Position numbers and translations under genes: made by a program. DNA of 64,000 bases from an uncultured Alphaproteobacteria bacterium (GTDB lineage Bacteria > Pseudomonadota > Alphaproteobacteria > CAAHEQ01 > UBA3637), in contig CALXUB010000004.1 of assembly GCA_944391565.1 (NCBI GenBank), forward strand, positions 46,180-110,179, in the 5' to 3' direction. Under the pieces are notes generated by a model, which saw only the letters and a program-made list of their open reading frames with translations, was not told the DNA's origin and did no database searches. This document shows positions 489 to 56,040 of this stretch, one piece after another. Each line of letters starts with the position of its first letter. The first letter of the stretch is position 1.

Positions 489-608
489 AAACACTGGAAA
501 AATAACGGTTTGTTAATTTTTATGATTTAATATCATTTTTCAGTAGACTTTTGTTCTAAGTTTGATTTATTTTAGTGTTAGGTGTTAATCAATCGAAAGA
601 GTTCGCAC

Positions 609-2258
609 ATGTCAAAGATAAAAAATACAAAAAAATGGGTGATGATGGCAACGGTGGGCGTGTTTGCGCTGACCTCGACCATTGTTTTGGCGCAACAGGT
701 TCAACCAGGGGATGTGGATGCTGCTCAGATGAGCGATGCCATGGCTCAAACGGCGGGCAGTTTTGATGCCATTAACCTCAGCTATATCACATCGCTCGGA
801 ATGCAACAAAAAGCGTGGAACGATCCGATGCAGCATTTGGGCGAAGGGCAAATTAAGCCGGGTTATTCCCGTTATGTGTGGACACCGGATGTTGTGCTGC
901 CTCTTCGTTTGCGCGAAGGGATGATGACTTTGATTAACTTGCCGACATGGGAATTGATTGAAAAAGTCCATATCGGATCACCTGAATCTTTTGGCGGTGA
1001 AATTGCGGCACCGAACTCTTTGCTGCTTTATGCCGATCCGACTTATTTGGGTGTGGACAGCAACATGATTATCTTTGGCAGATCAGGCAACAGATATGTT
1101 TTCTATCTGCGCAGCGAAACTTATAACACGGATCGGATTACAAATGCGGTTGTGGATGTCTTAGTAGGACCCAAGTATACACCGGTTGCCGATGGCGGTA
1201 CATTGAATATTCCGAATGGTGCTTCCGTGACGGCTGGATCAACGGGAACTGCTCGTGCCGGGGCTCCCGGTTGGGCCAGTGCCGGCAGTATCGGACCCGG
1301 TGTTAATCAAAATCCGACCGTTGGACTGAATACGGCGGGTAATGCACCCAAAAATTGGTTAGAAACCATTCCTGTTGATCCGGAAAAGTTCCGTTTTGAT
1401 ATTGATGTCTTTATTCCGAACCCGAGTGATATTGAGTTAGCTCCGGAACGCGTCTGGCGAGATGATATTTTCACCTACATTGACTTTGGTAAAAAAGCTT
1501 TGACAATGACACAACGGCCGGTTGTCAATTTGATCGTTCAAGGTTCCGAAGTACCGGTTGGTTCTCGGACAAAAGGCGAACACAGTCGCTTGCTGGTTGT
1601 TGAAGGTGTGGGCGATATGGTTTTGCGCAACGGTCAGCGATTGGTTTGCTTGAAAATGCGTCGAGATCCGGCGATGGGGTTGGATCAGACGGATTACTCT
1701 TGGTCGGAAGAAAATCTCTGGCGGGCGGAACAGCCTTCTCAACAGGCACAACCGACCCCGCAGGCCTCCGGGTATGCTGCCACGACGGGAGACATGCAGG
1801 GAATGCAGCTGGTGGAACAGGTGAACATTAATCCCTATGGCGGTGTCACTGAGAACTTCTACAGCAACATGGCTCCTTTGCCTGCAAATGTCAGAAATAA
1901 TCCTCAGGCTTCTCAGGGGATTATGGATGTCATGCAGGGAATGGCTCCCGGGGTATCTGCTGCAGGTGCATCTCGGGCAGCTTTTAACGTGATGCCGGCT
2001 GACAATATTGCCATTGAGTTGGCAACAGGAACGAATATTTCTGATTTGGAGAATAAATGGGAACAAATTCGTTCCAGAAATAAAGCTTTGCTGCAAGGAT
2101 ATAATCCTTACTTCTCCGTTGATACAATGGCAGAAGGCGGTGCGCCTGAATTATTCCGTCTGCGCATTGGTCCTGTGTCTTCGGTCAGTGTCGGGGATGA
2201 TATCTGTGAACAGCTTTCTAAAAAAGGATTGATGTGCTCGGTAATCAGAACACAATAG
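609..2258 (+). CDS. virB9: VirB9/CagX-like T4SS outer-membrane core protein with extended Gly-rich linker and a Q/P/M-rich C-terminal tail ending in a SPOR-like motif
   Basis: A signal peptide (MSKIKNTKKWVMMATVGVFALTSTIVLAQQ) begins at the ATG at 609; the ORF track's start at 582 is a GTG. The N-domain pattern REGMMTLINLPTWELIEKVHIGSPESFGG...NSLLLYADPTYLGVD...GNRYVFYLRS fits VirB9. The C-domain PERVWRDDIFTYIDFGKKAL...PVVNLIVQGSEVPV...LLVVEGVGDMVLRNGQRLVCL fits VirB9. The extra ~190-aa tail ends in IAIELATG...FRLRIGPVSSVSVGDDICEQLSKKGLMC, which resembles a SPOR fold. Confidence 0.7.
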   Translation: MSKIKNTKKWVMMATVGVFALTSTIVLAQQVQPGDVDAAQMSDAMAQTAGSFDAINLSYITSLGMQQKAWNDPMQHLGEGQIKPGYSRYVWTPDVVLPLRLREGMMTLINLPTWELIEKVHIGSPESFGGEIAAPNSLLLYADPTYLGVDSNMIIFGRSGNRYVFYLRSETYNTDRITNAVVDVLVGPKYTPVADGGTLNIPNGASVTAGSTGTARAGAPGWASAGSIGPGVNQNPTVGLNTAGNAPKNWLETIPVDPEKFRFDIDVFIPNPSDIELAPERVWRDDIFTYIDFGKKALTMTQRPVVNLIVQGSEVPVGSRTKGEHSRLLVVEGVGDMVLRNGQRLVCLKMRRDPAMGLDQTDYSWSEENLWRAEQPSQQAQPTPQASGYAATTGDMQGMQLVEQVNINPYGGVTENFYSNMAPLPANVRNNPQASQGIMDVMQGMAPGVSAAGASRAAFNVMPADNIAIELATGTNISDLENKWEQIRSRNKALLQGYNPYFSVDTMAEGGAPELFRLRIGPVSSVSVGDDICEQLSKKGLMCSVIRTQ

Positions 2259-2287
2259 GTTAATGATTTAACAAATGTTGGGATACG

Positions 2288-5200
2288 ATGGCGGACAATA
2301 TTTATCAAAGCTCTTTAGAGCAACATGTCAAGAAATCTAATCGAGTTTTTTTACTGGTTGGGATTCTTGCCCTTTTGGCGTTTTTGATCGCGTTATTTAT
2401 CTTTTCTAACGGAACAAAGCAGGCGCCTGATGAAACCATCATCGAATTTCCTGACAATCAGGGGCCTGATGTGACGGTTCCTAAAACAGATCCGCTGGAT
2501 TTGACACGACCCGTCGATGAAGGCTTGAATTTACGCGCAAGTCCGAGCAGCCTGATGTTAGAGGGCGTTGTTGTCGGCAGCTCGACTGAATCGGTGATTA
2601 CATTGCGTGCAGAAGGTGGTCCCATTCAGTTGGTCAGTTTAGATTTGGCTGAAACACAGCAGGACGGCTTTGTGATTGAAGGGGGTTGTAAAGCCGGAGA
2701 TATCATACCGCAAAACGGTTCTTGCAATCTTCGGGTTTTGTGGAATCCTGTGACGGTGCGACGGCTTCAGAATAACTTAGACATTCGTTGGAAACTAGAC
2801 GATCCGACAGCTTTCCCGCCTCCATCTGAAAAAACAATGATGATTACTTTATCGGGGCAGTCCGTAGATTCCGAACCTTGTGTGATTTGTGAAGACGTTA
2901 TTTCCGATAACGAAGCGAAAGAGCGTGAACGGCGATTGGGTGTTTTGGATCCTGAAACAGGCATGTATACCAAAGATGGTGAAATTGTCGGAATTATTGA
3001 GCCGGAAAAAATTGCCATCGCTTTGGACGGTACGCTGTTGGGTCAAATTTTAAAAGACACAAGCGAAGTCGTGGATGATCAAGGCAAAGTCATCGGTCGT
3101 ATTCTGCAGGATGATACGATTGTCAGCAAAGATCTGAAGGTTTTGGGTGCTGCTTTACCGCTTTTGCCGGTCTTGGACAGCACCGGTCAAGTAGTCGGTT
3201 CCTTGATTTCGGACGGGACAGTGGTTGATGCTAATCAAAAATTGGTCGGTTTGCCGATGGCTGATGGAACAATCGTCGGATTGGACGGACGGATTGTCGG
3301 GTCTGTCATGCCATGGGCCGTGGTGTTGAATTTGTCTTCTCAAGTCGTTGGTATTACGCAAAAAGACGGTTCTGTTATCAATATTGAAAAACAAAAAATC
3401 GGTCGAATCTTGCCGGGTGGTCTTGCCGTGAATGCGACAGGAAATATCATCGGCGGTGTTGTGCCTAAGGGATTGGCTATCGGTTATGGTTGTCACTCGC
3501 TGGGGAAAGTTCGTCCGAACGGAAAAATCATGAACGCCTTTGAGCAGCAGGTCGGTTATGTGACGATTGACGGGCTGGTTATGGATATGGGGGCTGTGCC
3601 AACCGGTATGGTTGTCCGCGAAGGTTTGGTGATTGATACGCAGGGCAACGTCATTGCTTTTGTCAATTCTGAAGGAAAAGCCATTACGGCCACAGCAGAT
3701 ATGCTGGGTTGTTTAAATCCTGACGGGACGGTTGCCGCCGGTAAAGACATTAAGGGAGCCGTTATGCCGCGCGGTCGTGTGGTCGGTTATGATTTGCAGG
3801 TTCAGGGTATCGTTTTACCTAACGGATCTGTGGTTAAACAAACGGGCGATGCGGTTGGTAAAGTTTTGTCAACCGGTTATGTTGTAGACATCAACAATAA
3901 AGTCTTTGGAGCGGTTGTGCCGAAAGGAACAGCAATTGCACAGGGCTGCGTTTTGTTGGGTATTATTGATTTGGATGGTCGTGTTTTGGATACTGCCGCC
4001 AAGCAAGTCGGAACAGTCAATCCCGATAAAAACGTTATGAATCAGGCGCGTGAGATTATCGGTGCTGTGACACCTGCCGGTGCGGTCGTGGGAATAGACG
4101 GTAAAATGATCGGCATTGTGCGTCCGGATGGTAAGGTCGTGGATAAAACAGGTCAGGTTATCGGCTGTGTCAACCCGGATGGCAGCGTTGTTAATGACAA
4201 GGGCGAAATAATCGGTCGAGTTGTTTCAATCGGTGGTGTTGTCTTGGACGAAAACGGTAATCCGACAGGCTGGACGGTTATCGGGACGGATGTCTATGAT
4301 GAAAACGGTCGCAAAGTCGGGACATTGATTGACGGTAAAGTCGTTAATGAACGGGGCGAGATTATCGGATTTATTCCACCGGACGGCATTATTGTTTCGC
4401 CGGAAGGACGCTTTTTGGGTCGCTTTACCAGCAAAACGGGTTATGCTGTGGATCAGGAAGGCAATCGCTTTGGCCGTGTTTTGCCTGATTTGACGGCGGT
4501 CAGTTTGGAAAAAAGCGAAATTATCGGTGCGTTGATTCCCGACGGCAGTCAGGTGATTAACATCAACGGTGAACGGATCGGTTCTATTCAGGCTGACGGC
4601 ACGGTGATTGATGTCAATTTGCAGCCGATGGGGATTATTCGTGCGGATGGATCTGTCGTGAATGCGGATGGTGTTATTTTGGGCGGTCTGATGCCGACCG
4701 GAACGGTTTTGGATTGGAACGGCACTGTCATCGGAAGTGTTCAGGGCAGCGGTAAGGTGATTTCGTCTTCTCAGACAGATATCGGGACTGTTCAGTTAAA
4801 CAGAACGGTGATTGATACGAACGGAAATGTGGTCGGTATGGTCTTTCCGGAAGCATCTATTCCTTTGGGTGAAAACGGTGAGCTGTTGGGCTTTTTGACC
4901 ATTAACGGAGACGTGAATAAAGACGGGAAAAAAATTGCTCATATGACGGCGGCCGGAACAATCTTTAATGAAGCCGGCGATGTGGCGGGCAGTTTGGTTC
5001 GTTTAGGGTCCGTAATGGGCAACAATAAAGAAATTCGCGGCTGGCTTTCTTTCCAAGGTAAATTGAACAATGTGGAAGGCAAACCAATCGGCTCTGTCAT
5101 GCCTGACGGATATGCCGTTAATGAAGAAGGCATGCAAATTGGGCACATCATTCCGCGTCAGACGGTCACGGATTTAAAAGGTGCCTTTGTCGGGACAGTC

Positions 5201-8200
5201 TCTGTCGACGGTCGTGTTTTGGGCCGGACTGGCGAAGTTTTAGGCGCATTCCCGTTTGACAATCGAATGATGAATGAAAACAACGTTTGGGTTGGTCGCG
5301 TTCTGCCTGCCGGATTGGCTTTGGACCCGGCCGGCGTATTCCTGGGCTACACACGTTATGACGGAGCTGTGGTTAACAACCGCGGTCAGTTGATTGGAAC
5401 GATTGCATCCGATAACCGTTTGTTGAATGCTGATGGAGAAGTGCTGGGACAATATATACCCTATGGTGCACTGGTCTTTGATCAAAAAGGAAAAGTGCTG
5501 GGTTCTATGGGCTTTGACGGCAAAGTTCGTAATGCCAAAGGCGGCGAGTTAGGCATCTTGATCGGGACGACGGTTGTGGATTCCAACAATAATGTCGTCG
5601 GTCAAGTGATGATCCCGGGCTATGCTTTGAACGAACAAGGTAAAGTGACTGGTCACATCTTCCCGAATGCAACTGTTTTGCGGAAGACAGATACCGAAAC
5701 GCTGCGTGATACCTATACAACCAGCCAGAGAATCGTCAATCGAGATCGACAGATCGTGGGTGGTTCAGTGCCTTTCGGAATTGCATTGGGATTAGATTTG
5801 GCTGTTCCGGGCAATGTCATGCCTGATGGTGGTGTAATGGGCGGAAATGCGCTTGCCGGTCGTGTTTTGACAGATGAGACTATGTATGATTTATTGGGTC
5901 GTGTATGGGGCGGCGTAATTGCTCCGAACGTTATTGTGTCAAAAGACGGTCATGTGGTCGGGTCTACATCAGTTTCTAATGCCATTAACGATATGCAGGG
6001 GACAAAGTTGGGAACGTTAATGCCTTTTGGTTCTGTTTTGACAACACAAAACGAATTGATCGGTTTGACGATGCCGACAGGTGTGGCTGTGAACGATTTT
6101 GCGAAAAAGCTGGGCTTTGTGGCTTCTGACGGTTCTGTTGTCAGTGCCGGCGGTGCTTTAGCCGGTCGGGCGATGCAGGACGGAACGATTGTTCAGCTGT
6201 TGACACGTGATGTTTATGGAACCATGCCGGATATCGGGGATGTTGTAGCCAGTGGTGTTGCAATCGGCTTGAAACCGGAATTATTCGGTCGAGCAATGCC
6301 TTCCGGAGATGTATTGAATAACTCTAATGAAACAATCGCTCAGATTTTGGATGATGCAACTTTGTTAGGCAAAGACGGTAATTTGGCCGGGGCACTGGTT
6401 GCTTGGCGCACGGCGATTGATCATCAAACAAACGTTATCGGAAATACAACCGGAGACGGAAATGTGACAAGCATTCAAGGCAATGTCATCGGTCATTTGG
6501 CTTCGAACGGAGCGGTGAAGGGGTCGCATGCGTTGAAGACACTGGGCGCGGTTATTCCGAATAATTTGGTGACGGATAACCAATGCCGAATTGTTGGTCA
6601 AGTTCGTTATGACGGACGTGTGATTGACGGTAATGGTCAAGTTGTCGCGGTGTTAAATCTGGATGGTTCTGCTGTTTCTCTGCAGGGAGCTAATGTCGGA
6701 GGCGTTGTTCAGAAAGGTTCTGTCATTGCACAAGATGGTACGCTTTTGGGGCGGACACTTCCGGATGCAGATGTCGTGGATTTAAGCGGTGTTTCCATCG
6801 GATGTTCTTTGTTCGACGGAACAGTGATTGACCATGATGGCAATGTCATTGGTCAAGTGTTAAAACGCGGCGTTGTCGTTGACGAAAATGGAAATGTGAT
6901 TGGTCGTGTGCTGCGTAATGGCCAGGTTGTTAACAGCAAAGGCGAAGTCATCGGTAAAGTACTGGGTGATGGCACGGTTGTCGATGAAAATGGCAATGTG
7001 CTGGGTCGTGTGATGGACTTGAAAAAAGAACAGTTGTTGTTTGATGAAAACGGCAAAATTACAGGGACGATGGACAAGGCTGGTCGTGTCTTTGATACAA
7101 AGGGCAAGCATTTGTTCACGGTCGGAGCTGATGGCACGCTGTATGATCCGAACGGCAACATTATCGGTCGAATTGATGATGACGGCAATATTTATGACAA
7201 TGCTGGCAACATCATCGGTAAAGTGGGTAAGGACGGAATTACATCCATGCCGAATTACTTGTATGACGCAGATGGCAATATCATCGGTTATATTAAGGAC
7301 GGTAAGGTCTTTAACACCAATGGCGAACAGATCGGTGAGGTATTGCCGGACGGCACGATTATGATTAACGGTAAACCATGGGGGCGCATTAACCCGGATG
7401 GCAGTATTACATTGTTCGGAGATGAAAGCTGTGAAAACAGTCAATATAACGGAAGCGTCACGGACAATGCCGGTAATCTGTTATACACAATCAAATGTGG
7501 CCGTGTTTATGATGCAAATGGTAATTTAATTGGGACCATTGATGAAAATGGCATTATTCGTGATCTGAACGGGAATATTATCGGAAGGATCGACGAATAC
7601 GGCAATTTATTAGATGCAAACGGCAATATTATCGGCAAGTGGACACCGGATGCAGTTGATTGCCTGCACGCGCAATACAATGGTTCTGTGCATGATAATA
7701 ACGGCAAGCTGCTTTATACCATTAAATGCGGTAAAGTTTATGATGCCAAAGGCAATCTGATCGGAACAATTGACGGCAATGGCGTCATTCGTGATTTGAA
7801 TGGCAATGTGATTGGTCGTATTGATGAGAATGGCAATTTGCTGGATCCGAATGGGAATATCATCGGAAAATGGACTTCAGATGATAATTGTATGAACGCC
7901 CAGTATAACGGAACGGTTCGGGATAATCAGGGACACGTTCTTTATACGATTAAGTGCGGGTATGTTTATGACGCTGAAGGCAACTTGATCGGAACGATCG
8001 ATGCAAATGGTGTTATTCGAGATCTGAACGGAAATGTGATCGGAACTTTACGTGATGGCGTTTTGTATGATCCAAATGGTAATCCGATTGGCAGATGGTC
8101 TCCTGAAAGCGGTGCAACGGGTTTTGTTTCCGGACGTAATTTGTTGGAAGGAACCGGTCTGGGGACTGGCGGATTGAACTTAAGCGGTCGCCGAATTGCC

Positions 8201-9655
8201 ATTGGGGATAAAGAGTTTATGGTTTTACCGGATAATTCCATTATTAACCCAATGACAGGTGCCGTGATTGGTCAGTTGAAAAACGGTGTGCCTTATTCCT
8301 TATCCAATAATTTGTTGGCTGATGAATTAGGAACCGGTACGGATCAAAAGTTCACGGGACAGGAGATTCTTCAATTCTCACCGGAACAGGCTGTTCAGAT
8401 GCGTAATTTGCTGGCAAAACGGCGTGAAAGCATGAAACAGGGGATTGGGTCTCAGTTGTCTAAAATTACTCCGGATGGACGTGTTTTGGCACGGGCCAAG
8501 AAAAAACAAGCCAAAGATTTTGGTTCGAAAAGTGTTTCAAGTTGGCCTGTGGACATGAGTCGCATGATTTTGAAAGACAAAGCGATACCAGCAGTGTTGC
8601 AGCGTTCGATTGACAGCCGTTATATGTCTGTTCCCGCATCTGCGATTGTGGAACGTCATGTTTATGCGGAAGATGGTCGAAACATTATTATTCCGGCCGG
8701 CAGTAAGTTGATTGGGTCTGTGACAGGAAGCCCGGGGACGAACCATGTGGCTAAGTTGGAGATTTCTTGGGAACGGCTCATTCGACCGGACGGCGGCTCC
8801 TTCACGCTTCAGGCGATCTCAGGTGACGCGCAGGGACGCGGTGGTGTGGCTGCATACCTGGATGAAATGTTCCTGGCTCGCTATGGCAAGCCGATTTTAC
8901 AGTCCACGATGGTTTCTGCAATCAGCTATTTGGTAGCTTCGGATGAGACAGTCACTCAAAATCAGAACTACGGGACATCTTCCCAATCTGATCGGGCTCA
9001 GGCTGCTCAAGAGGCGCGCGAGAACTTTATCGACGATATGGAAATGATTTTCAATCAATTGATTGAAGATTCTTCTACGACACCGCCGGTTGTCTTTGTG
9101 CCTTCGGGAACGCGAATGACGATTTTCGCTATGGAAGATTTGTGGCTGAGAACCGAAGAGGATGACGTAGATGACTATGAAGCTGAAATGGGCGCCGACA
9201 CAACGGAGGCCAGGACACCTGGTCAACAATACGGTATGGCTCAACGTCCTGTAGGCGGGTCACGGGGCGGAGCTGCTTCAACGGCGGAAATTTCTTCACC
9301 GGCTCAGCAGAATACATTTACCCCGACCGATGATATGTATTATGATCCGGGTTATACGGGAGACGGAGAAACACAAACCGCCATCGGCACAAATCAGGCA
9401 GACGGTTCGCAGACACTTTATGAACCGACGCCCGCATCAACTCAGTCATCTTCATCTCAAACAGCAAGTTCGACGAATGCAAATACCTCTGGCGGTCGTC
9501 CGATGACATTGGAAGAGCTGTATAATTCTCAACAGGGATTGAGTTCTTACTCATCCGATACAGATAACAACCGGATTGCGGCTCCGTTGCAACAGCGACA
9601 GCGAACAACGTCTCAGGGAGGAGGTTCTTCTTCCTCTTCCTTGGAACTGTTCTAG
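2288..9655 (+). CDS. virB10: Giant VirB10/TrbI-family protein (CagY-like): N-terminal TM anchor, ~1700-aa repetitive spacer, C-terminal VirB10 beta-barrel domain, disordered S/T/Q-rich tail
   Basis: N-terminus KKSNRVFLLVGILALLAFLIALFIF is a single TM helix as in VirB10. A C-terminal segment (nt ~8490-9160) reads IPAVLQRSIDSRYMSVPASAIVERHVYAEDGRNIIIPAGSKLIGSVTG...AKLEISWERLIRPDGGSFTLQAISGDAQGRGGVAAYLDEMF...PPVVFVPSGTRMTIFAMEDLWL, which matches the TrbI/VirB10 C-domain pattern. Between the TM helix and this domain lie hundreds of degenerate ~15-aa DG.V[VI]D.NG.V[IL]G.V units. It is a single uninterrupted 2455-codon ORF. Confidence 0.75.
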   Translation: MADNIYQSSLEQHVKKSNRVFLLVGILALLAFLIALFIFSNGTKQAPDETIIEFPDNQGPDVTVPKTDPLDLTRPVDEGLNLRASPSSLMLEGVVVGSSTESVITLRAEGGPIQLVSLDLAETQQDGFVIEGGCKAGDIIPQNGSCNLRVLWNPVTVRRLQNNLDIRWKLDDPTAFPPPSEKTMMITLSGQSVDSEPCVICEDVISDNEAKERERRLGVLDPETGMYTKDGEIVGIIEPEKIAIALDGTLLGQILKDTSEVVDDQGKVIGRILQDDTIVSKDLKVLGAALPLLPVLDSTGQVVGSLISDGTVVDANQKLVGLPMADGTIVGLDGRIVGSVMPWAVVLNLSSQVVGITQKDGSVINIEKQKIGRILPGGLAVNATGNIIGGVVPKGLAIGYGCHSLGKVRPNGKIMNAFEQQVGYVTIDGLVMDMGAVPTGMVVREGLVIDTQGNVIAFVNSEGKAITATADMLGCLNPDGTVAAGKDIKGAVMPRGRVVGYDLQVQGIVLPNGSVVKQTGDAVGKVLSTGYVVDINNKVFGAVVPKGTAIAQGCVLLGIIDLDGRVLDTAAKQVGTVNPDKNVMNQAREIIGAVTPAGAVVGIDGKMIGIVRPDGKVVDKTGQVIGCVNPDGSVVNDKGEIIGRVVSIGGVVLDENGNPTGWTVIGTDVYDENGRKVGTLIDGKVVNERGEIIGFIPPDGIIVSPEGRFLGRFTSKTGYAVDQEGNRFGRVLPDLTAVSLEKSEIIGALIPDGSQVININGERIGSIQADGTVIDVNLQPMGIIRADGSVVNADGVILGGLMPTGTVLDWNGTVIGSVQGSGKVISSSQTDIGTVQLNRTVIDTNGNVVGMVFPEASIPLGENGELLGFLTINGDVNKDGKKIAHMTAAGTIFNEAGDVAGSLVRLGSVMGNNKEIRGWLSFQGKLNNVEGKPIGSVMPDGYAVNEEGMQIGHIIPRQTVTDLKGAFVGTVSVDGRVLGRTGEVLGAFPFDNRMMNENNVWVGRVLPAGLALDPAGVFLGYTRYDGAVVNNRGQLIGTIASDNRLLNADGEVLGQYIPYGALVFDQKGKVLGSMGFDGKVRNAKGGELGILIGTTVVDSNNNVVGQVMIPGYALNEQGKVTGHIFPNATVLRKTDTETLRDTYTTSQRIVNRDRQIVGGSVPFGIALGLDLAVPGNVMPDGGVMGGNALAGRVLTDETMYDLLGRVWGGVIAPNVIVSKDGHVVGSTSVSNAINDMQGTKLGTLMPFGSVLTTQNELIGLTMPTGVAVNDFAKKLGFVASDGSVVSAGGALAGRAMQDGTIVQLLTRDVYGTMPDIGDVVASGVAIGLKPELFGRAMPSGDVLNNSNETIAQILDDATLLGKDGNLAGALVAWRTAIDHQTNVIGNTTGDGNVTSIQGNVIGHLASNGAVKGSHALKTLGAVIPNNLVTDNQCRIVGQVRYDGRVIDGNGQVVAVLNLDGSAVSLQGANVGGVVQKGSVIAQDGTLLGRTLPDADVVDLSGVSIGCSLFDGTVIDHDGNVIGQVLKRGVVVDENGNVIGRVLRNGQVVNSKGEVIGKVLGDGTVVDENGNVLGRVMDLKKEQLLFDENGKITGTMDKAGRVFDTKGKHLFTVGADGTLYDPNGNIIGRIDDDGNIYDNAGNIIGKVGKDGITSMPNYLYDADGNIIGYIKDGKVFNTNGEQIGEVLPDGTIMINGKPWGRINPDGSITLFGDESCENSQYNGSVTDNAGNLLYTIKCGRVYDANGNLIGTIDENGIIRDLNGNIIGRIDEYGNLLDANGNIIGKWTPDAVDCLHAQYNGSVHDNNGKLLYTIKCGKVYDAKGNLIGTIDGNGVIRDLNGNVIGRIDENGNLLDPNGNIIGKWTSDDNCMNAQYNGTVRDNQGHVLYTIKCGYVYDAEGNLIGTIDANGVIRDLNGNVIGTLRDGVLYDPNGNPIGRWSPESGATGFVSGRNLLEGTGLGTGGLNLSGRRIAIGDKEFMVLPDNSIINPMTGAVIGQLKNGVPYSLSNNLLADELGTGTDQKFTGQEILQFSPEQAVQMRNLLAKRRESMKQGIGSQLSKITPDGRVLARAKKKQAKDFGSKSVSSWPVDMSRMILKDKAIPAVLQRSIDSRYMSVPASAIVERHVYAEDGRNIIIPAGSKLIGSVTGSPGTNHVAKLEISWERLIRPDGGSFTLQAISGDAQGRGGVAAYLDEMFLARYGKPILQSTMVSAISYLVASDETVTQNQNYGTSSQSDRAQAAQEARENFIDDMEMIFNQLIEDSSTTPPVVFVPSGTRMTIFAMEDLWLRTEEDDVDDYEAEMGADTTEARTPGQQYGMAQRPVGGSRGGAASTAEISSPAQQNTFTPTDDMYYDPGYTGDGETQTAIGTNQADGSQTLYEPTPASTQSSSSQTASSTNANTSGGRPMTLEELYNSQQGLSSYSSDTDNNRIAAPLQQRQRTTSQGGGSSSSSLELF
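7430..8107 (+). repeat. Three tandem ~231/228/219-bp coding repeats inside virB10 (77-aa Cys-bracketed modules)
   Basis: Units start at 7430 (CENSQYNGSV...), 7661 (CLHAQYNGSV...) and 7889 (CMNAQYNGTV...). Each encodes C-x3-QYNG[ST]V-xDN-xG-x-[LV]LYTIKCG-xVYDA-xGNLIGTID-xNG[IV]IRDLNGN[IV]IG. The protein is highly conserved across units but many synonymous nucleotide differences are present. Confidence 0.85.
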
Positions 9656-47520: not shown

Positions 47521-49422
47521 TCACCGGCACAAAGCTCTTAGGTTTGTGTAATAAAACGATTTATGTCCGACGCGTCCGCTGTCTAAGAACACATAATTTT
47601 TCGCACAAGTGTTGGAGGAAGTTGTATCCGTCCATGCCATTATACTGTCGGAGGTTGTTCCGGTTAAATGAGCACAAGCATTATCCACGCCTTCTTCGCC
47701 ATTCCAGTTCGGGCAAGCTTCGGACATGGTCACTAATCGCATGCCTTTGCTTTCACAAAAGTTTTTAGCACTCCAATAATACATGTAATCATTCTCCGAA
47801 AGCAGGTACTGGCTTCCATCGGCAGCCGTTATGAAAGTTCCTTCGGCTTTCTGACATGTGCCGGTTCCCTCGACTGTCGCGTGACAATAGGAACTCCCCG
47901 GATAGCTGGTATATTGACAATAATAACCTGACTCATCATGACAATCACTTTGAGAGGTACAGGACATATCTTTCAATGGCAAACATTGTTCGTTTTCTTC
48001 ATCCTGCCAATATCCTTCGTCGCAGATAAAGTTCACTCCGTCACACGTCGCATGTGCAGGACAAGGTGTGCAAAATTCACCGGACAAATATTCATCATTT
48101 TGACAGGCATAGCGGCCGTCGTCTAAACAAAGGGCTTGTAAATTGCTGTAAAAATAGGGTTTGTGACCAACTCTGCCACTATCCAAATAAACGTAATATT
48201 TGGCGCAGTCATTAGCGTTTGAGCTTGTCCAACCCATGACGGCTGATGAATAAGCATTCGTCAGGTTCTGACATGCTCCGTCAACGCCTTCCGTTCCTGA
48301 CCAATTCGGACAAGCCTCTTCAATACGAGCCAAAGCCAGTCCTTTGCTCGCGCAGAAATTTTTGGCAGACCAATAGAACATATAGCTGGATTGAGAGAGT
48401 AAATAACGTTGTCCGTTTTTACCAATGACAATCACTCCATTATTTTTTTTACAAATGCCATCTCCTTCTACTTCTTCATTACAATAAGTCGCACCGGGAG
48501 CATAATTTTGCATTTCACAATAAGTATCTGCTTCGCTGCAATCATTTTGTGCAGAACAATAATTTTTATCGACGCAGCCATCTTGTGCGGAGTTTATTTT
48601 GTATCCTTCTAAACAGGTGAAAGTCATCCCATTGCAAGAAGCATGTTCTGGACAAGGAGTACATATGTTATTCTGTAAATATTGTTCGTTTGAACAAATG
48701 CATAATCCATTTGAACAAATGCCAATTTCGTTTTCTTCACGAATGCACGGCTCTCCATCGGATAAGGCAACACAAACAGCACATCCCTTTGAATCTATTT
48801 TTATTTTTTCACATGGTGTGCAAAGTAAATCGATGCTTTGATTATCGCAAATGGTGCATATTCCATTAGAACAGTATCCTTCTTCACCATGTTCTGTGAA
48901 ACAAGCTGTCGCCGAAGGATTAGGAATACATTGCCCATTGCTGCAAGTTTCACAAGAAGTGCACTCTTCGCTGCATTCTTCCGATGGAATTTCATCATTG
49001 TTGAAAGAAAAAATAAAATGAAGAGTACTTTCTGTTGGACAATTTGTTTCATCGGGTTGATTGTTAATAAAAATTTCTTGGATAGGAGTATGTTTATTAT
49101 TTAATAAACGCTGACATATTCTTTTATCAATTTGTTCAACTTGAACATCAAATCCGTCTTCTAAAATTAGAGTTATAATATTTTTCCCAGATTCTGGAAG
49201 ATAAAGAGGCTTTATAATATCTCCTTGATTTAATCCTTCTCGAGTGACAAGACGTTCAGCCTGTATCATTACATCATTTAAAATTTGATTAGATTCGTGC
49301 CAAGTTAAGGCCATTCTAATGCCTGCAATACTTCCTAAGCTAAGGAGAGCTGCAATCAACAAAACAGACAACAATTCAATCATTGAGCGTCCATAATTTT
49401 GGATATCAGAAAGTCTTTTCAT
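47521..49422 (-). CDS. Type IV pilin/pseudopilin-like protein with large Cys-rich extracellular region containing two EGF-like + C-type-lectin-like repeats (633 aa)
   Basis: The N-terminus is a class III (prepilin) signal, MKRLSDIQNYG|RSMIELLSVLLIAALLSLGSIAGI, with Glu at +5. There are ~60 Cys. Two ~200-aa internal repeats each contain CTPCP[EA]HA[ST]C[ND]G..F.C.EGY and YYWSAKNFC[AE]SKG[LM].L......ACPNW.G.EGVD.AC...W.GL-like lectin elements and SGRVGHK.[FY]YY[ST]NL[QR]ALC. Confidence 0.55.
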   Translation of the reverse strand: MKRLSDIQNYGRSMIELLSVLLIAALLSLGSIAGIRMALTWHESNQILNDVMIQAERLVTREGLNQGDIIKPLYLPESGKNIITLILEDGFDVQVEQIDKRICQRLLNNKHTPIQEIFINNQPDETNCPTESTLHFIFSFNNDEIPSEECSEECTSCETCSNGQCIPNPSATACFTEHGEEGYCSNGICTICDNQSIDLLCTPCEKIKIDSKGCAVCVALSDGEPCIREENEIGICSNGLCICSNEQYLQNNICTPCPEHASCNGMTFTCLEGYKINSAQDGCVDKNYCSAQNDCSEADTYCEMQNYAPGATYCNEEVEGDGICKKNNGVIVIGKNGQRYLLSQSSYMFYWSAKNFCASKGLALARIEEACPNWSGTEGVDGACQNLTNAYSSAVMGWTSSNANDCAKYYVYLDSGRVGHKPYFYSNLQALCLDDGRYACQNDEYLSGEFCTPCPAHATCDGVNFICDEGYWQDEENEQCLPLKDMSCTSQSDCHDESGYYCQYTSYPGSSYCHATVEGTGTCQKAEGTFITAADGSQYLLSENDYMYYWSAKNFCESKGMRLVTMSEACPNWNGEEGVDNACAHLTGTTSDSIMAWTDTTSSNTCAKNYVFLDSGRVGHKSFYYTNLRALCR

Positions 49423-50501: not shown

Positions 50502-51602
50502 TCAGATTTTATTAAGTGCAGTTGCTTCATGGTGCTTCGAAAAGGTGGCATAGCGTTGAACCATTTTTATTGATTTCCAACCTCCTAATTTTTGAAGAGT
50601 TAAAAGGTCCATGCCGGACATAATACATCTAGATGCCCAGTCATGTCGCCAGTCGTGAATGCGCATTTTTTTCCCATTGCTGTTTCGAGGGATAAAACCG
50701 TGTCTTTGTTCAAAACGTTTTAATGCTAATGTGTGTGCTTTATGAAGTGGTGTCCCACCTCCTCTTATTCGAGTGTCGCAATATGGAACATTTTTGATTG
50801 TTAAAAAAACTTTTCCAGATTTCGGTTTGTTTGCTCTGATCCATGTTCTTGCTAAAATCCAAAAAGTTTTCCGGTGCATTGGAACGTTTCGTGTTTCTCC
50901 GTTCTTACTTTTTACAATATCAATTGTTCGGTTCGGAAAGTAAACATCAGCCCAATCTAGTTGGAGCAATTCTTGTTCACGAAAGCCTTGAACAGCGTAA
51001 ATTTCAAACATAGGCCGAGCGTGCGTAGAGTAACAATCTAATAAAAGAGTGCGAGTTTCATTATCTAGGTGAAAAACGACATTGTCATTTCCTCTTTTCC
51101 TCGGTAATTTTTGAAATTCAAATCCAAGATCATTTGCCGCACATCTGATTATTGCCATTATCGTGTCCCTATAACGATTTGTTGTTGTTGGTGCCAAGTG
51201 TTGTTTTTCCCTTAGAAAATCTCTCCAGGCTGTTTTAATGTCTGATATGCGTATGTTTGAAAAATAAGGACGTAATATCTCGATTTTATTAATTTCACCG
51301 GCTTTTAACTGGTTATTAATAAGATATATTTCTAAACATTGATCAAATGTTATATCTTGTGGGTGGGACGTATGTCCTGTTTTAATATTGGTCCTAATTT
51401 TTTCTTCTAACTCGTGAGCATATTCCGCTGCTTCTGCTTTTGTAGTAAATCCTGTACTTTGCTCCGGGACGTTAATTGACTGTGAACCAACTTTAATCGT
51501 TCCACGTACCGAGTAGATGCCTTTCTTTCCTCTTTGTCGGATATGTAACACTTTTCTTTTTCCTTTTGTAATGTTTCGAAAATTATTTCCTTGAAGTACC
51601 AC
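50502..51602 (-). CDS. int: Tyrosine-type site-specific integrase
   Basis: The C-terminal catalytic region HDWRHDWASRCIMSGMDLLTLQKLGGWKSIKMVQRYATFS contains the H-x-x-R and terminal Y of the RHRY family. It lies adjacent to the tRNA fragment. Confidence 0.85.
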   Translation of the reverse strand: MVLQGNNFRNITKGKRKVLHIRQRGKKGIYSVRGTIKVGSQSINVPEQSTGFTTKAEAAEYAHELEEKIRTNIKTGHTSHPQDITFDQCLEIYLINNQLKAGEINKIEILRPYFSNIRISDIKTAWRDFLREKQHLAPTTTNRYRDTIMAIIRCAANDLGFEFQKLPRKRGNDNVVFHLDNETRTLLLDCYSTHARPMFEIYAVQGFREQELLQLDWADVYFPNRTIDIVKSKNGETRNVPMHRKTFWILARTWIRANKPKSGKVFLTIKNVPYCDTRIRGGGTPLHKAHTLALKRFEQRHGFIPRNSNGKKMRIHDWRHDWASRCIMSGMDLLTLQKLGGWKSIKMVQRYATFSKHHEATALNKI

Positions 51603-51736
51603 CCGCGACGCATGGGCTTTATCCCTCGTTTATTAAGCCAATTTCTTGTATTTCGAATGGGATTTAATGTCGTATCGTATTTGAGTAAAAAGGCTATCTC
51701 ATTTAAGGATATGGATTGGACTTCTTCAAATTTCAT
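51407..51736 (-). CDS. Possible excisionase/AlpA-like small DNA-binding protein (overlaps int 5' end in another frame)
   Basis: The sequence MKFEEVQSISLNEIAFLLKYDTTLNPIRNTRNWLNKRGIKP has a helix-turn-helix flavour. It overlaps the int start by ~195 nt, so either this ORF or the integrase N-terminus is overcalled. Confidence 0.25.
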   Translation of the reverse strand: MKFEEVQSISLNEIAFLLKYDTTLNPIRNTRNWLNKRGIKPMRRGWYFKEIIFETLQKEKEKCYISDKEERKASTRYVERLKLVHSQLTSRSKVQDLLQKQKQRNMLTS

Positions 51737-52062
51737 TCTTCCTCCTTTACTAGGCATATTTCTTCGATCTCTTCATCTTCAATTTCTGTATCTCCTCGAA
51801 AATCTTCTTCCCAATCCTTATCCGCCTTGTAAGCCTTTTTCTCCGCCTCATCTTCAGAAAAAGCCATAATTTCTAATTCGCATTTAACGGAAACGGATTG
51901 TATTGCATTCATTTTCACCAGATATTTCTTAGGTTTTCCTTCTCGTCTGAAGTTTTCATCGACATGTTTTCGAACAAAATCGGTAAACTTACCATATCCG
52001 GCATCTTTGAAATCATTCAAATCAATTTTTAGGCCATTTTTCGTTGTAATTATCATCTCCAA
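51733..52062 (-). CDS. Acidic hypothetical phage protein (109 aa)
   Basis: It is an ORF of E/D-rich composition lying in the early left operon. Confidence 0.35.
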   Translation of the reverse strand: MEMIITTKNGLKIDLNDFKDAGYGKFTDFVRKHVDENFRREGKPKKYLVKMNAIQSVSVKCELEIMAFSEDEAEKKAYKADKDWEEDFRGDTEIEDEEIEEICLVKEEE

Positions 52063-52283
52063 TCCCCAATTTTGTTAGGAAGGGACAGGTTTTGAGTTTT
52101 TTGTCTTTTCCCGCCGCCTTCCGATGCTTTATTGCACTTTCCCTTCTAAAAAGGCAAAAGCAGACTCTTTCGCCGCAAGAGGAAGGGATTTGTCATTTAT
52201 AACTTTTAAAGCTTCGATAATGCTTTGGGAGTTTGGACATCCGTTGATTTTGACGATTATCAAACTTTCTTTTAAAATATCAG

Positions 52284-52529
52284 TCATTTTCCCTCCGGTT
52301 CAAATTTATTAAAGACGTATTTTGTTTCAATTTTAACGGATTTACCGCATTTGCAATGAAATCCCCATCCGCCTTCTACTTTTGTGGTGATGCCATTTTT
52401 TACGTATGAGACGTCTAATTGATAAAAAAGATCTTTAGTCGACACTCGGTTAGCTCGTCCACAGTATGGGCATAGGCCGTCAAAATTAACGGAAAGCCAT
52501 AACTTTTCCTGAAGCGATAAATTATTCAT
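52284..52529 (-). CDS. Zinc-ribbon protein (81 aa)
   Basis: The CPYCGR ... CKCGKS pair forms a C4 zinc ribbon. Confidence 0.4.
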   Translation of the reverse strand: MNNLSLQEKLWLSVNFDGLCPYCGRANRVSTKDLFYQLDVSYVKNGITTKVEGGWGFHCKCGKSVKIETKYVFNKFEPEGK

Positions 52530-52532
52530 GAT

Positions 52533-52793
52533 TTATACCCTTTCACCATAAAACCATTCTTCCCAAGCTTCAACGATTTCAGGGAAAGCTATTTTCAAGC
52601 GGTGGCGATTGTTTGAATCGGCTTTGCCGATCAGGTCAATGAGTTTACACATAAAAGAGGTGCTTTCTCCTCTTTGCCATTCTTTTATCTGTTCCCGTGC
52701 TTCTTCTTTTGTCATAATGTCTCCTTGTTTCTCTCTTTTTCTTTTAAACTCGCTGGTATTCTTTGACCGATTGAAACATGATCCAACTGGCAA
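52533..52793 (-). CDS. Hypothetical phage protein (86 aa)
   Basis: It is an ORF adjacent to the zinc-ribbon gene in the same operon. Confidence 0.35.
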   Translation of the reverse strand: MPVGSCFNRSKNTSEFKRKREKQGDIMTKEEAREQIKEWQRGESTSFMCKLIDLIGKADSNNRHRLKIAFPEIVEAWEEWFYGERV

Positions 52794-53056
52794 CGGCCTT
52801 TACTCTGTGAGAGAATACCTTTCGTGTGCGAGCAACACGGTTTACTTTTGAAAAAGATAGCCAGTGGAAAGCTAATTCATCGCAACCCTTCGCCATACCG
52901 GCCGGTTTTATATTCCCAAGCATCAACGCGGGATTGGCCTTTTTCGCACGCAACTAAAAGCAACATGACGCTTAACAAAACAATGAAAATGTAAATTGCG
53001 GTGTCTTTGATCATTATTGTTTTTCCTTTTCAAAAGTTTTTTAATCACAAAAGAAT

Positions 53057-53073
53057 TATACGATAATCGTATA
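53057..53073. promoter_or_regulatory. 17-bp palindromic operator TATACGATAATCGTATA (copy 1)
   Basis: This is a perfect inverted repeat. A second copy lies 36 bp downstream and a third lies in the cI/cro intergenic region. Confidence 0.6.
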
Positions 53074-53092
53074 AAATAAGTCAATAGAAAAA

Positions 53093-53109
53093 TATACAAT
53101 AATCGTATA
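53093..53109. promoter_or_regulatory. Operator copy 2, TATACAATAATCGTATA (1 mismatch)
   Basis: It shows the same palindrome family. It is followed by the same AAAATxA flank as copy 1. Confidence 0.55.
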
Positions 53110-53289
53110 AAATGACTAAAAAGGCTCAAAAGCGTATCTTTTTCGAAACAGAATTGCGGAAAGAAGTGGGGGCGAAAAATAACTTTTCGAACTTAAAAAA
53201 ACGAATCGGAGTTAAAAAAATATGAAAAAAAGGATTGACAATACCGCAATAATGACATACAATTTAAATATACAGAAAGGAAAACGAGA

Positions 53290-53487
53290 ATGCCGATACG
53301 ATATACTTTTGAAGATTTGAGAAAAATGATTGAAAAAGACGGGTGGTTCTTAGTGCGGGTTAAAGGAAGTCATATGCAGTTTAAGCATGCATCGAAAGTT
53401 GGGATTGTGACAATCCCTGCTCATCGGGGGATTGTTCCGCCAGGCACAGCAAACAGTATATTGAGGCAGGCAGGTTTGAAAAAATAG
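53290..53487 (+). CDS. hicA: HicA mRNA interferase toxin
   Basis: It is a 65-aa protein. The KGSHMQFKH motif carries the HicA catalytic His. An RBS AAAGGAAA is present. Confidence 0.85.
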   Translation: MPIRYTFEDLRKMIEKDGWFLVRVKGSHMQFKHASKVGIVTIPAHRGIVPPGTANSILRQAGLKK

Positions 53488-53496
53488 GAGGTTGCT

Positions 53497-53925
53497 ATGT
53501 TAAAATACATTGCTTTATTTGAAACGGATAAGGAAACGGGGCAGGTTGGTGTTGTTTTTCCCGACGTGCCGGGATGTTTTTCCGGCGGTTCGAACTTTGA
53601 TGATGCTTTGCGGAATGCACATGAGGCGTTGGCTTTGCATTTGGATGCATTGGCTGATGAAGGGCAAGCTCTTCCGGTTCCTCGGAGTTTGGAGGATATC
53701 AAAAAAGAGTGGGATGAATGGTCAGATTGGCAAAATTATGATTTTCTCGTCTCGCCGGTCAGCTATATTAAGTTTCGTAAGCCTAAAAAGTATACGCTTT
53801 ATTTGGACAGCGATTTGGTCGCAGTTGTCGATTCTGTTTCCAAAAATCGGTCGGCTTTTTTTAACGAAGCGGCAAGAACGGTGTTAGGGCAGAATGTATC
53901 AAAAACGAGATCGCACACACTATAA
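53497..53925 (+). CDS. hicB: HicB antitoxin (RNase H-like N-domain + RHH-like C-term)
   Basis: It starts MLKYIALFETDKETGQVGVVFPDVPGCFSGGSNFDDALRNAHEALALHL. It has an AGGAGG RBS. It lies immediately downstream of hicA. Confidence 0.8.
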   Translation: MLKYIALFETDKETGQVGVVFPDVPGCFSGGSNFDDALRNAHEALALHLDALADEGQALPVPRSLEDIKKEWDEWSDWQNYDFLVSPVSYIKFRKPKKYTLYLDSDLVAVVDSVSKNRSAFFNEAARTVLGQNVSKTRSHTL

Positions 53926-53933
53926 TCCCAACT

Positions 53934-54569
53934 TTATGTCTTGCTTTTGGGCTTTTTCTTACGCGATGTTTTAACGGCCCGAACGTCTGACGTTCCAAAG
54001 GCATCATAACCTGTGAGAGCGTTCACAAAATCCGGCAACTCAATCAGCTCACCATTGTTGTCATATATGTCTTCAATATTTGTGCTGAGAAATGTTCGGC
54101 TGGCATGGCGCAAAAGGCAGGTTCCTTGAAAGTAGAAACGTGTTTTGCCGTCCTTATAAATTTTGTGGAGAATAACGCTTCTTTCTGTATAAACGCCGGC
54201 CGCATTTCGGTAGTTAAAATTGATTGGCAATCCTTCGGCTGATTCCCAGACAATTACGCCGAAGTCTGGAAGGTCAAAATCATCATCTTCTTCCGGTTGC
54301 TGTTTTAGTTGGGGCGTTGGCTTTGGGGTGAACGGTTCTGCTATTTGGTTGCCTTTTATAATAACCTTAACGAGACTAATAATTAAGCCGATAAACAAGG
54401 AAAGCATGAGATAGGAAAGAAGTGCCATTTTAAGATTTTCTTTAAATCCAGCGGAAGAGGAGATAAGAGAAATGATAAAACCCAGGATGCATGGAAATGA
54501 AGCTCCAATAGCTCCTTGTTTTATGCTTTTTGTCATTATCTGCAACGTGATTTCTTGTTCTTTTTTCAT
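53934..54569 (-). CDS. Membrane-anchored protein with WYL-like C-terminal domain (211 aa)
   Basis: Two N-terminal TM helices are followed by INFNYRNAAGVYTERSVILHKIYKDGKTRFYFQGTCLLRHASRTFLSTNIEDI. This fits the WYL-domain pattern (Y.d..G..t.R.v.P..l....g..Y..g.C..r...R.F....I). Confidence 0.4.
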   Translation of the reverse strand: MKKEQEITLQIMTKSIKQGAIGASFPCILGFIISLISSSAGFKENLKMALLSYLMLSLFIGLIISLVKVIIKGNQIAEPFTPKPTPQLKQQPEEDDDFDLPDFGVIVWESAEGLPINFNYRNAAGVYTERSVILHKIYKDGKTRFYFQGTCLLRHASRTFLSTNIEDIYDNNGELIELPDFVNALTGYDAFGTSDVRAVKTSRKKKPKSKT

Positions 54570-54664
54570 GTTTTCTCCTCTTAGATGTATGTTCTTGGTT
54601 TACAATAAAATGTGTGTAAAAGCAATTGGTTAGTCTAAAAATTCGTAATTAATTTTGATAAAAA

Positions 54665-55000
54665 TCAAGTTTTTTTTCGAAAATAAAGAAGCATACGTTC
54701 GTTGGGAAGTTCTTTTGGTGTTTTTAAAAAATACATAATGTGTTTGTATTTAAACCGTGTTATTCCTTTCGTCGAGCTGAAATTCCAGTGCTTCCTCAAA
54801 TATCCATCGATTTTTTGTTCGGTGACGTGAAGTTCTGCGGCTTTTAGAGATATTTCAGACCGTAAAGATTGATATTCATAATAAGTAATGGGGGTCAGAA
54901 AGTAAAGAATAACAGCCAGGCACAGCATAAAAAACACAAAAACAAGATGATAAAAAAAGGTGTTTTTTTTAAAGAAAAAGAAACGGGCGTATTTTTGCAA
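54665..55000 (-). CDS. Small membrane protein (111 aa)
   Basis: It has a hydrophobic N-terminal helix (FYHLVFVFFMLCLAVILYFL). It lies between the WYL-like gene and the repressor. Confidence 0.35.
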   Translation of the reverse strand: MQKYARFFFFKKNTFFYHLVFVFFMLCLAVILYFLTPITYYEYQSLRSEISLKAAELHVTEQKIDGYLRKHWNFSSTKGITRFKYKHIMYFLKTPKELPNERMLLYFRKKT

Positions 55001-55133
55001 TCCGAGAGATTGACGACAAAACAGGACTCGGATTTTGTAAATTGCACCGGTTGCGGTGGCGTTTCATGCGATTTTATGTCTGGAAGATCATTTACAATTT
55101 TTGCGAATTTTTCTTTATCGATCATTAAACTTC

Positions 55134-55607
55134 TCACTGGTTGACTACAGAATGGCGATATGCAAAATCGGCGATATTATAGACTTTTGCTTTTTTCTCC
55201 GCTGCCGGCGTATCTTTGACGTCATCATATATCATGTAGGCAAGCTCTAATCCTAACTGTGCCGGTAATACTTTATGGCGATCCGCTGCCCAATTGGTCA
55301 ACATCTCAATCAGTTCAAATAATTCATCCTTAGGGATATTGTTATTATTGCTGGATGCGTTGTGAGTTGTCGCATTCCAAAGTTCTTCTTCAGATATTCT
55401 TCCAGAAACAAAATCGAGAAAAGCCAATGTATCGAAATTCAAGAAAGATGCTGCTTTTCGCACATGTTCAATTTTTAAGTTCCAGCAACCTTTCTCTAAA
55501 TCTGATAAACGTGGCTGTCGAACGCCAAGCGCAGCGGCTAATTGCGTTTGCGTTTTTCCAAGCTCTTTTAAACGGCGTTTCAGCCAAAAAACTTTTGTCT
55601 CATTCAT
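55134..55607 (-). CDS. cI-like phage repressor (HTH_XRE N-term)
   Basis: The sequence LKRRLKELGKTQTQLAAALGVRQPRLSDLEKG is an XRE-type HTH. It is divergent from the cro-like gene and the operator palindrome lies in the intergenic region. Confidence 0.75.
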   Translation of the reverse strand: MNETKVFWLKRRLKELGKTQTQLAAALGVRQPRLSDLEKGCWNLKIEHVRKAASFLNFDTLAFLDFVSGRISEEELWNATTHNASSNNNNIPKDELFELIEMLTNWAADRHKVLPAQLGLELAYMIYDDVKDTPAAEKKAKVYNIADFAYRHSVVNQ

Positions 55608-55690
55608 AAATTAAATATATCCGAAAATCGAATATAGCACAAGGGGAAAAAAATATTATACGGTTTATGTAAAAAATATATTGACTCATT

Positions 55691-55707
55691 TATACGATTA
55701 TCGTATA
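55691..55707. promoter_or_regulatory. Operator copy 3 TATACGATTATCGTATA overlapping a TTGACT-17bp-TATAGAT promoter for the cro-like gene
   Basis: TTGACT at 55681-86 and TATAGAT at 55704-10 flank the palindrome. The palindrome sits between them. Confidence 0.6.
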
Positions 55708-55730
55708 GATTGGGAAGGTGGGAGGTTGTA

Positions 55731-55940
55731 ATGTCAATCAATTTTAACAAAATTAAGGAAAAAACAAGCTTTCGGAGGTTCGCATCTGAAATGGGTGTGC
55801 CTTATACGACTTTTTTCACATGGTTAAAGAATAAAAAGGTGCCTGTTTGGAGAATCCATCAATTGGAATGTGCGGCCAAACGATTGAATATTGATTTGTC
55901 CGGTTGTCATGAGGTTTCTTGTGAGGATAGAAAAGGTTGA
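55731..55940 (+). CDS. Cro/YdaS-like small HTH protein
   Basis: It has a GGGAGG RBS. The sequence SFRRFASEMGVPYTTFFTWLKNKKVP has an HTH flavour. It lies in the position of lambda cro. Confidence 0.55.
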   Translation: MSINFNKIKEKTSFRRFASEMGVPYTTFFTWLKNKKVPVWRIHQLECAAKRLNIDLSGCHEVSCEDRKG

Positions 55941-56040
55941 TCAAAGTGCTTTTTTTAATTTTATGTGTGTTCAGTTTCTGCCTTTTTTGCGTATTCGTGC
56001 GCGAAATGGCTGAAGCCTTTTTAAACATTGAGGAGGAAGA

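Follow-up and report, generated by a model that had tools for sequence, protein, structure and literature searches.

We analysed a 64-kb stretch of DNA (hereafter the window; contig CALXUB010000004.1) from an uncultured gut alphaproteobacterium, in which copies of a 17-bp palindrome are located in the immunity region of a prophage. These palindromes most likely constitute the operator set of the lysogeny switch of this prophage, arranged in a left (OL) and a right (OR) operator region as in phage lambda. The sites occur far beyond chance and are confined to two regulatory spacers. The main evidence for the operator reading is a natural swap in a related prophage, where both operator regions have changed together with the DNA-binding module of the repressor.

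Dyad sites on two outward early promoters

The palindrome TATACGATWATCGTATA has two exact matches in the window, at 53057–53073 (TATACGATAATCGTATA) and at 55691–55707 (TATACGATTATCGTATA), and did not occur in any of 100 shuffles. With up to three mismatches only two further sites were found in the window, namely 53093–53109 and 55618–55634. The first of these (TATACAATAATCGTATA) is an imperfect palindrome with one mismatch. The second (TATCCGAAAATCGAATA) deviates at 3 of 17 positions, that is at 2 of the 14 specified ones, and precedes the repressor start codon by 11 nt; the whole-window expectation for sites as good as this one or better is 0.09. A degenerate fifth site with a good left half-site (TATACGGTTTATGTAAA, 55657–55673) was found by aligning the two promoter modules described below. 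The window shows no enrichment of half-sites by themselves, so it is the full dyad that forms the signal. The initial annotation had counted three perfect copies; two are indeed perfect, while the third carries the single mismatch and the two weaker sites had been missed. Its geometry agrees with our measurements, the left pair being 36 bp apart (start to start) and the clusters 2634 bp apart (53057 to 55691), and no site with up to three mismatches lies in the window outside the two regulatory spacers. The sites and the promoters with which they are associated are as follows.

OL1, 53057..53073: perfect site; spacer and -10 box of PL
OL2, 53093..53109: one mismatch; just upstream of the PL -35 box, 36 bp from OL1
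OR3, 55618..55634: overlaps a candidate repressor promoter; kept in two close relatives, L019 and L020
OR2, 55657..55673: degenerate, inferred site
OR1, 55691..55707: perfect site; spacer and -10 box of PR
PL, 53055..53084, - strand: TTGACT-18-TATAAT, 11 of 12 consensus matches in the promoter scan
PR, 55681..55709, + strand: TTGACT-17-TATAGA, reading rightward into the cro-like gene
Candidate repressor promoter (PRM-like), 55614..55642, - strand: TTGTGC-17-TATATT, ending 6 nt before the ATG; read from the sequence, not detected by the scan
Alternative repressor promoter, 55684..55655, - strand: TCAATA-18-TATAAT

PL reads leftward into a gene for a 45-aa lipoprotein-like product, several small open reading frames (ORFs) and the integrase gene, and its spacer and -10 box are filled by OL1. 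The left-hand pair would thus very probably control this leftward early promoter. At PR, OR1 is enclosed by the two boxes (TTGACT at 55681–55686 and TATAGA at 55704–55709, or TATAGA(T) to 55710) in the same register as OL1 in PL, just as had been proposed for a copy overlapping a TTGACT/TATAGAT promoter between the divergent repressor and cro-like genes. Read each in its direction of transcription, the PL and PR modules can be aligned over approximately 60 nt, a stretch that takes in the second site ahead of each -35 box, and OR2 corresponds to OL2 in this alignment.

OR3 fills the spacer of the TTGTGC-17-TATATT candidate promoter, from which transcription is predicted to begin at the A of the repressor ATG. 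No Shine-Dalgarno sequence is visible in front of this ATG and the TATATT box is only 6 nt away from it; therefore the repressor mRNA may be leaderless. The repressor gene of the related prophage L022 differs in having a TTGACT-17-TACAAT promoter, a leader of approximately 35 nt and a GGAG sequence.

Exchange of the probable operators in related prophages

L022, present in a metagenome-assembled genome from NCBI, is a related prophage which in blastn comparison is 90–94% identical to ours over approximately 10 kb, with the exception of two segments. The alignment divides our prophage in the following way.

52128–53028: early-left ORFs, 90% identical to L022
53029–53211: first immunity-specific segment (OL and PL), not homologous to L022
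53212–55343: hicAB promoter, hicAB, three ORFs and the C-terminal codons of the repressor gene, 91% identical
55344–55961: second immunity-specific segment (repressor residues 1–88, OR and the cro-like gene), not homologous to L022
55962–61601: early-right genes, 94% identical

The recombination joint at 55344 falls in the poly-Asn linker of the repressor. The repressors of L022 and of another relative, L021, share with that of the window only the C-terminal ~70 residues (66–79% identical), and their N-terminal domain is unrelated and has no match in Pfam. In both loci the longest inverted repeat of the region joins the repressor–cro spacer to the spacer beside the leftward operon. Their dyad, TATAGKA-N4-TMCTATA, differs from the one in the window; three copies are present in OR and one in OL, where it sits between a TTGACA box and the -10 box. 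With up to two mismatches this dyad was found nowhere else in either 12.4-kb locus. In the comparison with related prophages that had been suggested at the outset, the L022 operators at OL and OR have thus changed together with the DNA-binding module of the repressor. Operators that co-vary with the DNA-binding module in constant surroundings are what is expected of genuine operators and of classic heteroimmune phages.

Close homologues are rare. L019 and L020, whose repressors are 98% identical to that of the window, keep OR1 and OR3 and are too similar to be informative. Distant relatives carry the comparison further. The repressor of L153 (P0057) is only 26% identical to that of the window, and L153 has the same gene layout. 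A 68-nt inverted repeat with 82% complementarity connects OR and OL in L153, which are 2.0 kb apart. The L153 dyads, at 5880–6000 and 7770–8005, are again of the 7-3-7 class; they comprise TATACGATGTTCGTATA, TATACGAAATTCGTGTA and some weaker copies, and three of the sites are in OR. Repressors only 26% identical to that of the window, in L153, L156, L157 and L158, share the dyad class TATACGA-N3-TCGTATA, the half-site being conserved despite their divergence. L157 and L158 carry three sites in OR and three in OL (at 1938–2024 and 3136–3228 in L157), among them TATTCGAATATCGTATA, which falls within a TTGACT-17-TATATG promoter. In L156 three OR sites are present at 1433–1520, and this contig of 2.7 kb does not reach OL. 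Sites within OR are spaced by 32–39 bp in these four relatives. In L153, L157 and L158, OL carries one to three sites at a distance of 1–2 kb from OR, and among the relatives whose loci span both regions a separation of 1.1–2.6 kb is found repeatedly; L155 is too short on the OL side. The bipartite design mirroring that of lambdoid phages, as originally described, is thus borne out by OR1–3 between the divergent genes, by OL1–2 on PL and by its recurrence in distant relatives. No relatives of the repressor were found in IMG/VR, the GTDB species genomes or the JGI metagenome contigs, and one further repressor with a related N-terminal domain (62% identical, L023) has a different gene context and no matching dyad.

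Exact-pattern scans of viral and metagenome contigs returned isolated hits or repeat families of an unrelated kind, none of them near a repressor homologue; beyond showing that the dyad is not a widespread motif, these scans are uninformative. An unrelated metagenome contig (L119, 10433–10485) contains two copies 36 bp apart together with extra ATACGAT motifs, again with no repressor homologue nearby. As a separate observation, the palindrome is part of a 23-bp tandem unit in nine contigs, several of them marine (L009, L010, L011, L016, L034, L054, L067, L096 and L114). In L010, the only one of the nine that was inspected, the unit ATATACGATAATCGTATATATGGGTGT (e.g. at 2941–2986) is intergenic, and the contig is unrelated to the prophage studied here.

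Proposed mechanism and its alternatives

The repressor is a protein of 157 amino acids with a single Pfam domain, the XRE-type helix-turn-helix (HTH) domain HTH_3 (PF01381; residues 9–59, 36.4 bits against a gathering cut-off of 23). Its family profile matches the DNA-binding domains of lambda and 434 cI in the PDB with E-values of 3e-5 to 1e-3. A search of 1.8 billion representative proteins yielded about 20 full-length relatives of approximately 150 aa (23–40% identical), which define a two-domain family. In the structural model (mean pLDDT, the predicted local distance difference test score, of 73) helices span residues 5–79 and are followed by a disordered, low-confidence poly-Asn linker (80–92) and by three further helices (93–109, 116–130 and 135–155); it supersedes an earlier, poor model built on a four-sequence alignment that mixed two types of N-terminal domain. 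The Foldseek neighbours of the model are HTH proteins (434 Cro, 434 cI and SinR), none of them significant, and the fold search returned no significant neighbour for the C-terminal domain. No match to the S24 peptidase family (PF00717) was found in the repressor, and the modelled C-terminal domain consists of three helices rather than a beta fold. The label "cI-like" is hence appropriate for the gene position and the HTH class and does not extend to the peptidase domain. Because an S24/LexA-like C-terminal domain is missing, RecA-stimulated self-cleavage is not expected. In a distant relative, P0005 (224 aa), an N-terminal domain 45% identical to that of the repressor is joined to an S24 peptidase domain, so that this type of DNA-binding module occurs with more than one kind of C-terminal domain.

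In the mechanism that we infer, a dimer of the 157-aa XRE-type repressor would bind the dyad TATACGA-N3-TCGTATA. Bound at OL1 and OR1, it would occupy the spacer and -10 box of two near-identical outward promoters, PL directed toward int and PR into cro and the replication and late genes, and by excluding RNA polymerase would keep the prophage silent. Such repression of PL and PR by promoter occlusion is well supported and forms the core of the proposal. Cooperative binding is probably added by OL2 and the degenerate OR2, each immediately ahead of a -35 box, and the weak OR3 over the promoter region of the repressor gene probably serves negative autoregulation. For these same sites the cro-like protein is a probable competitor. 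A loop joining OL to OR by way of the conserved C-terminal domain also seems plausible, given the analogy to lambda, the retention of this domain across immunity types and the recurring separation of 1–2.6 kb.

Several features weigh against the operator reading or parts of it. The -10 box of PR, TATAGA, is without the usual final T and was missed by the promoter scan, which required T as the last -10 base. OR2 is the weakest of the five sites, with 4 of the 14 specified positions off. The spacing of 34–39 bp between centres, or approximately 3.4 helical turns, does not reproduce the same-face geometry of lambda, and cooperativity may be different or absent. The promoter of the repressor gene itself appears uncertain, as both candidates have a weak -35 box. 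The affinity hierarchy varies among relatives, since L153 has its best sites elsewhere than in the PL and PR spacers. Lastly, the cro-like gene was swapped alongside the N-terminal domain of the repressor, so that the L022 comparison cannot tell which of the two proteins reads the sites.

The left-hand copies had initially been assigned a position upstream of hicAB and a possible role, through repressor-mediated looping between OL and OR, in controlling this toxin–antitoxin pair alone or together with the early-left operon. The hicAB cassette (53235..53925, + strand) consists of hicA (53290–53487) and hicB (53497–53925), two adjacent genes identified by PF07927 (HicA_toxin, E 1e-19) and PF15919 (HicB, E 1.9e-19). 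The position holds, since OL1 and OL2 lie 181–233 bp upstream of the hicA ATG, on the promoter side of the cassette, and a weak rightward promoter-like sequence (TAGAAA-17-TAAAAT, 53085–53113) overlaps OL2. However, hicAB has a separate promoter of its own (TTGACA-17-TACAAT, 53235–53263, 11 of 12 consensus matches) which contains no palindrome and whose -35 box is 126 bp beyond OL2. The left pair overlaps PL on the opposite strand, with OL1 exactly in its spacer and -10 box, and PL reads away from hicAB. Moreover, the hicAB promoter is kept in the heteroimmune L022, where homology restarts at 53212 while the operators have been replaced, and L021 has the same kind of OL beside its leftward operon and yet no hicAB. 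As OL1 occupies the PL spacer and -10 box and the hicAB promoter is separate, the left pair would belong to PL and not to hicAB, and repressor control of the toxin–antitoxin pair is unlikely and was not retained. We suggest instead that hicAB, situated between OL and the repressor operon, is an insert that is expressed independently. L153 has an operator-like site (CATACGATATTCGTTTA, 7781–7797, two mismatches; region 7768–7810) that adjoins a TTGACA box just upstream of opposite-strand genes in the slot equivalent to that of hicAB. It is possible from this arrangement that genes inserted in the slot may be under repressor control in some relatives.

That the dyads are read mainly or only by the cro-like protein, and not by the 157-aa repressor, is improbable. 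The cro-like gene does lie within the swapped segment (55344–55961) and co-varies with the operators in the same way as the N-terminal domain of the repressor. The protein also gives weak HTH signals, all of them sub-threshold; it matches phrog_4583 with an E-value of 5e-4 and stays below every curated threshold, in contrast to the clear HTH_3 domain of the lambda/434 class in the repressor. The four distant relatives L153, L156, L157 and L158, with repressors of the same family, use the same 7-3-7 dyad class. In characterised switches of this layout (lambda and 434), both proteins share the operators (PMC11149083).

A very improbable alternative is that the dyads have no regulator at all and represent a duplicated promoter module, chance, or a structural DNA or RNA hairpin. 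PL is nearly a duplicate of PR, and the dyads can form weak hairpins (-3 to -10 kcal/mol). OL2, OR2 and OR3, however, lie outside the core hexamers and keep the dyad nevertheless, and perfect twofold symmetry is unnecessary for promoter function. The heteroimmune relatives carry a different dyad at the same positions, which argues for a protein reader. The dyads are located upstream of the predicted transcription starts. A role of the palindromes in RNA was considered and rejected, as the region has no match in Rfam and its hairpins are weak.

Hardly credible is the remaining proposal that the palindromes serve HicB in autoregulation of hicAB: type II antitoxins usually regulate their own operon through palindromes located upstream of it (PMC8138530) and two copies do lie upstream of hicA, but one perfect copy is 2.6 kb away at PR, the C-terminus of HicB has no confirmed ribbon-helix-helix or other DNA-binding domain, and HicB is excluded as the reader because L022 has hicAB 91% conserved with the palindromes replaced by sequence matching its own OR, and because L153 and L157 use the same dyad class with no HicA or HicB family recorded among their called genes.

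Prophage setting and comparison with known switches

The prophage has a lambda-like gene order. Its integrase is located at 50.5 kb and its terminase at 63.5 kb, and it extends past the terminase. Sequence similarity to a phage in the INPHARED GenBank phage collection was not found. The RNase J of the host is 90–91% identical to the RNase J proteins of two metagenome-assembled genomes labelled "uncultured Alphaproteobacteria". The genes in question are listed below.

50502–51602, - strand: tyrosine integrase
51407–53014, - strand: series of small ORFs, reading leftward
52877–53014, - strand: opening gene of the PL operon; its 45-aa product carries a lipobox-like motif, LLLVAC; kept in L022
53290–53925, + strand: hicA and hicB
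53934–55137, - strand: three lysogeny-side ORFs (80, 111 and 211 aa), membrane-like and of no known family
55134–55607, - strand: repressor gene (157-aa HTH protein)
55731–55940, + strand: cro-like gene (69 aa), divergent from the repressor gene, opening the PR operon, with a GGGAGG ribosome-binding site
56211 onward, + strand: GapR-like protein, RusA, O-like replication protein, methyltransferase, small and large terminase

The region between OL and OR thus holds hicAB, the three small lysogeny-side genes and the repressor gene. The three ORFs are downstream of the repressor gene on the same strand, are probably co-transcribed with it, and occupy the place of rexAB in lambda. The leftward series includes an ORF at 51407–51757 (- strand) that overlaps the integrase gene at its start, in the place expected of an excisionase; with 25.2 bits it barely passes the Pfam cut-off of 25 for the MvaI/BcnI restriction endonuclease family. 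Just beyond the prophage, 47521–49422 (- strand) encodes a 633-aa protein whose N-terminal helix is prepilin-like and which has two repeat halves rich in Cys. The G+C content at 48–52 kb is 35%, and that of the host part of the window is approximately 45%. At the other end of the window (582–9655, + strand), an ORF weakly similar to VirB9 precedes an ORF of 2455 aa, and this locus possibly belongs to a type IV secretion or conjugation system.

In the immunity regions of lambda and other lambdoid phages (434 and P22), cI is followed by OR1–3 with PRM and PR and by cro, and OL with PL is located approximately 2.3–2.4 kb away; the lambda cI transcript from PRM is leaderless. The switch described here resembles this system in many respects: the divergent repressor and cro genes, operators that are 17-bp dyads, PL directed toward int, the strongest sites on the two outward early promoters with a weak site at the repressor's own promoter, accessory genes expressed in lysogeny between the repressor gene and OL, and a comparable OL–OR distance (2.6 kb here). 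Heteroimmune relatives differ exactly in the operators and the DNA-binding domain in both cases, the repressors belong to the same HTH superfamily, and the repressor mRNA is possibly leaderless here as well. Unlike the lambdoid repressors, the one in the window is without an S24/LexA-like C-terminal domain. The sites are also 34–39 bp apart (centre to centre) instead of 23–24 bp in lambda, OL has two sites where lambda has three, and the host is an alphaproteobacterium.

A repressor of similar architecture is CI of the lactococcal phage TP901-1, which like that of the staphylococcal phage phi13 consists of an HTH domain, a flexible linker and an all-helical C-terminal domain, does not undergo self-cleavage, and in TP901-1 uses three related palindromic operators, OR, OL and OD (PMC11149083). 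Our repressor shares with it the XRE-type HTH domain, the flexible linker and a helical C-terminal domain of the oligomerisation type without a protease, and both systems employ several related palindromes as operators. The match is one of architecture only: the TP901-1 CI chain was absent from the results of the sequence and fold searches with our repressor, neither of which gave a match to its C-terminal domain. Its operators lie in a compact switch of approximately 1 kb, whereas those of the window are 2.6 kb apart. The partner protein MOR of TP901-1 does not bind DNA alone, and its structure (6to6) matches our repressor profile weakly (E 0.12). The best structural neighbours of the model are SinR, DdrO, SaPI Stl and the phi106 repressor, all with E > 0.01. 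They share the plan of an HTH domain plus a helical domain, the matches being carried by the HTH part, and their biological settings differ.

It is possible, if rather doubtful, that our prophage and its relatives represent an undescribed alphaproteobacterial family of switches, in which a constant three-helix C-terminal domain has been recombined with unrelated DNA-binding domains and their matching OL and OR operators, members only 26% identical share the 7-3-7 dyad, and induction proceeds without S24 self-cleavage.

The understanding of temperate phage switches in general is not changed by the present finding, which appears to be an ordinary lambda-like switch in a new prophage lineage. What it provides is a map of the predicted lysogeny switch for a prophage of an uncultured gut alphaproteobacterial lineage which is unrelated to any INPHARED phage, and a correction of the attractive yet unsupported idea that a phage repressor controls hicAB. 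The natural swap of domain and operators ties the DNA sites to a protein module and should be useful for prophage annotation and for predicting mutual immunity. If the conserved C-terminal domain does bridge OL and OR, long-range looping in the style of lambda would have originated independently in these prophages, and the same domain might also be the part of the repressor that receives a new induction signal.

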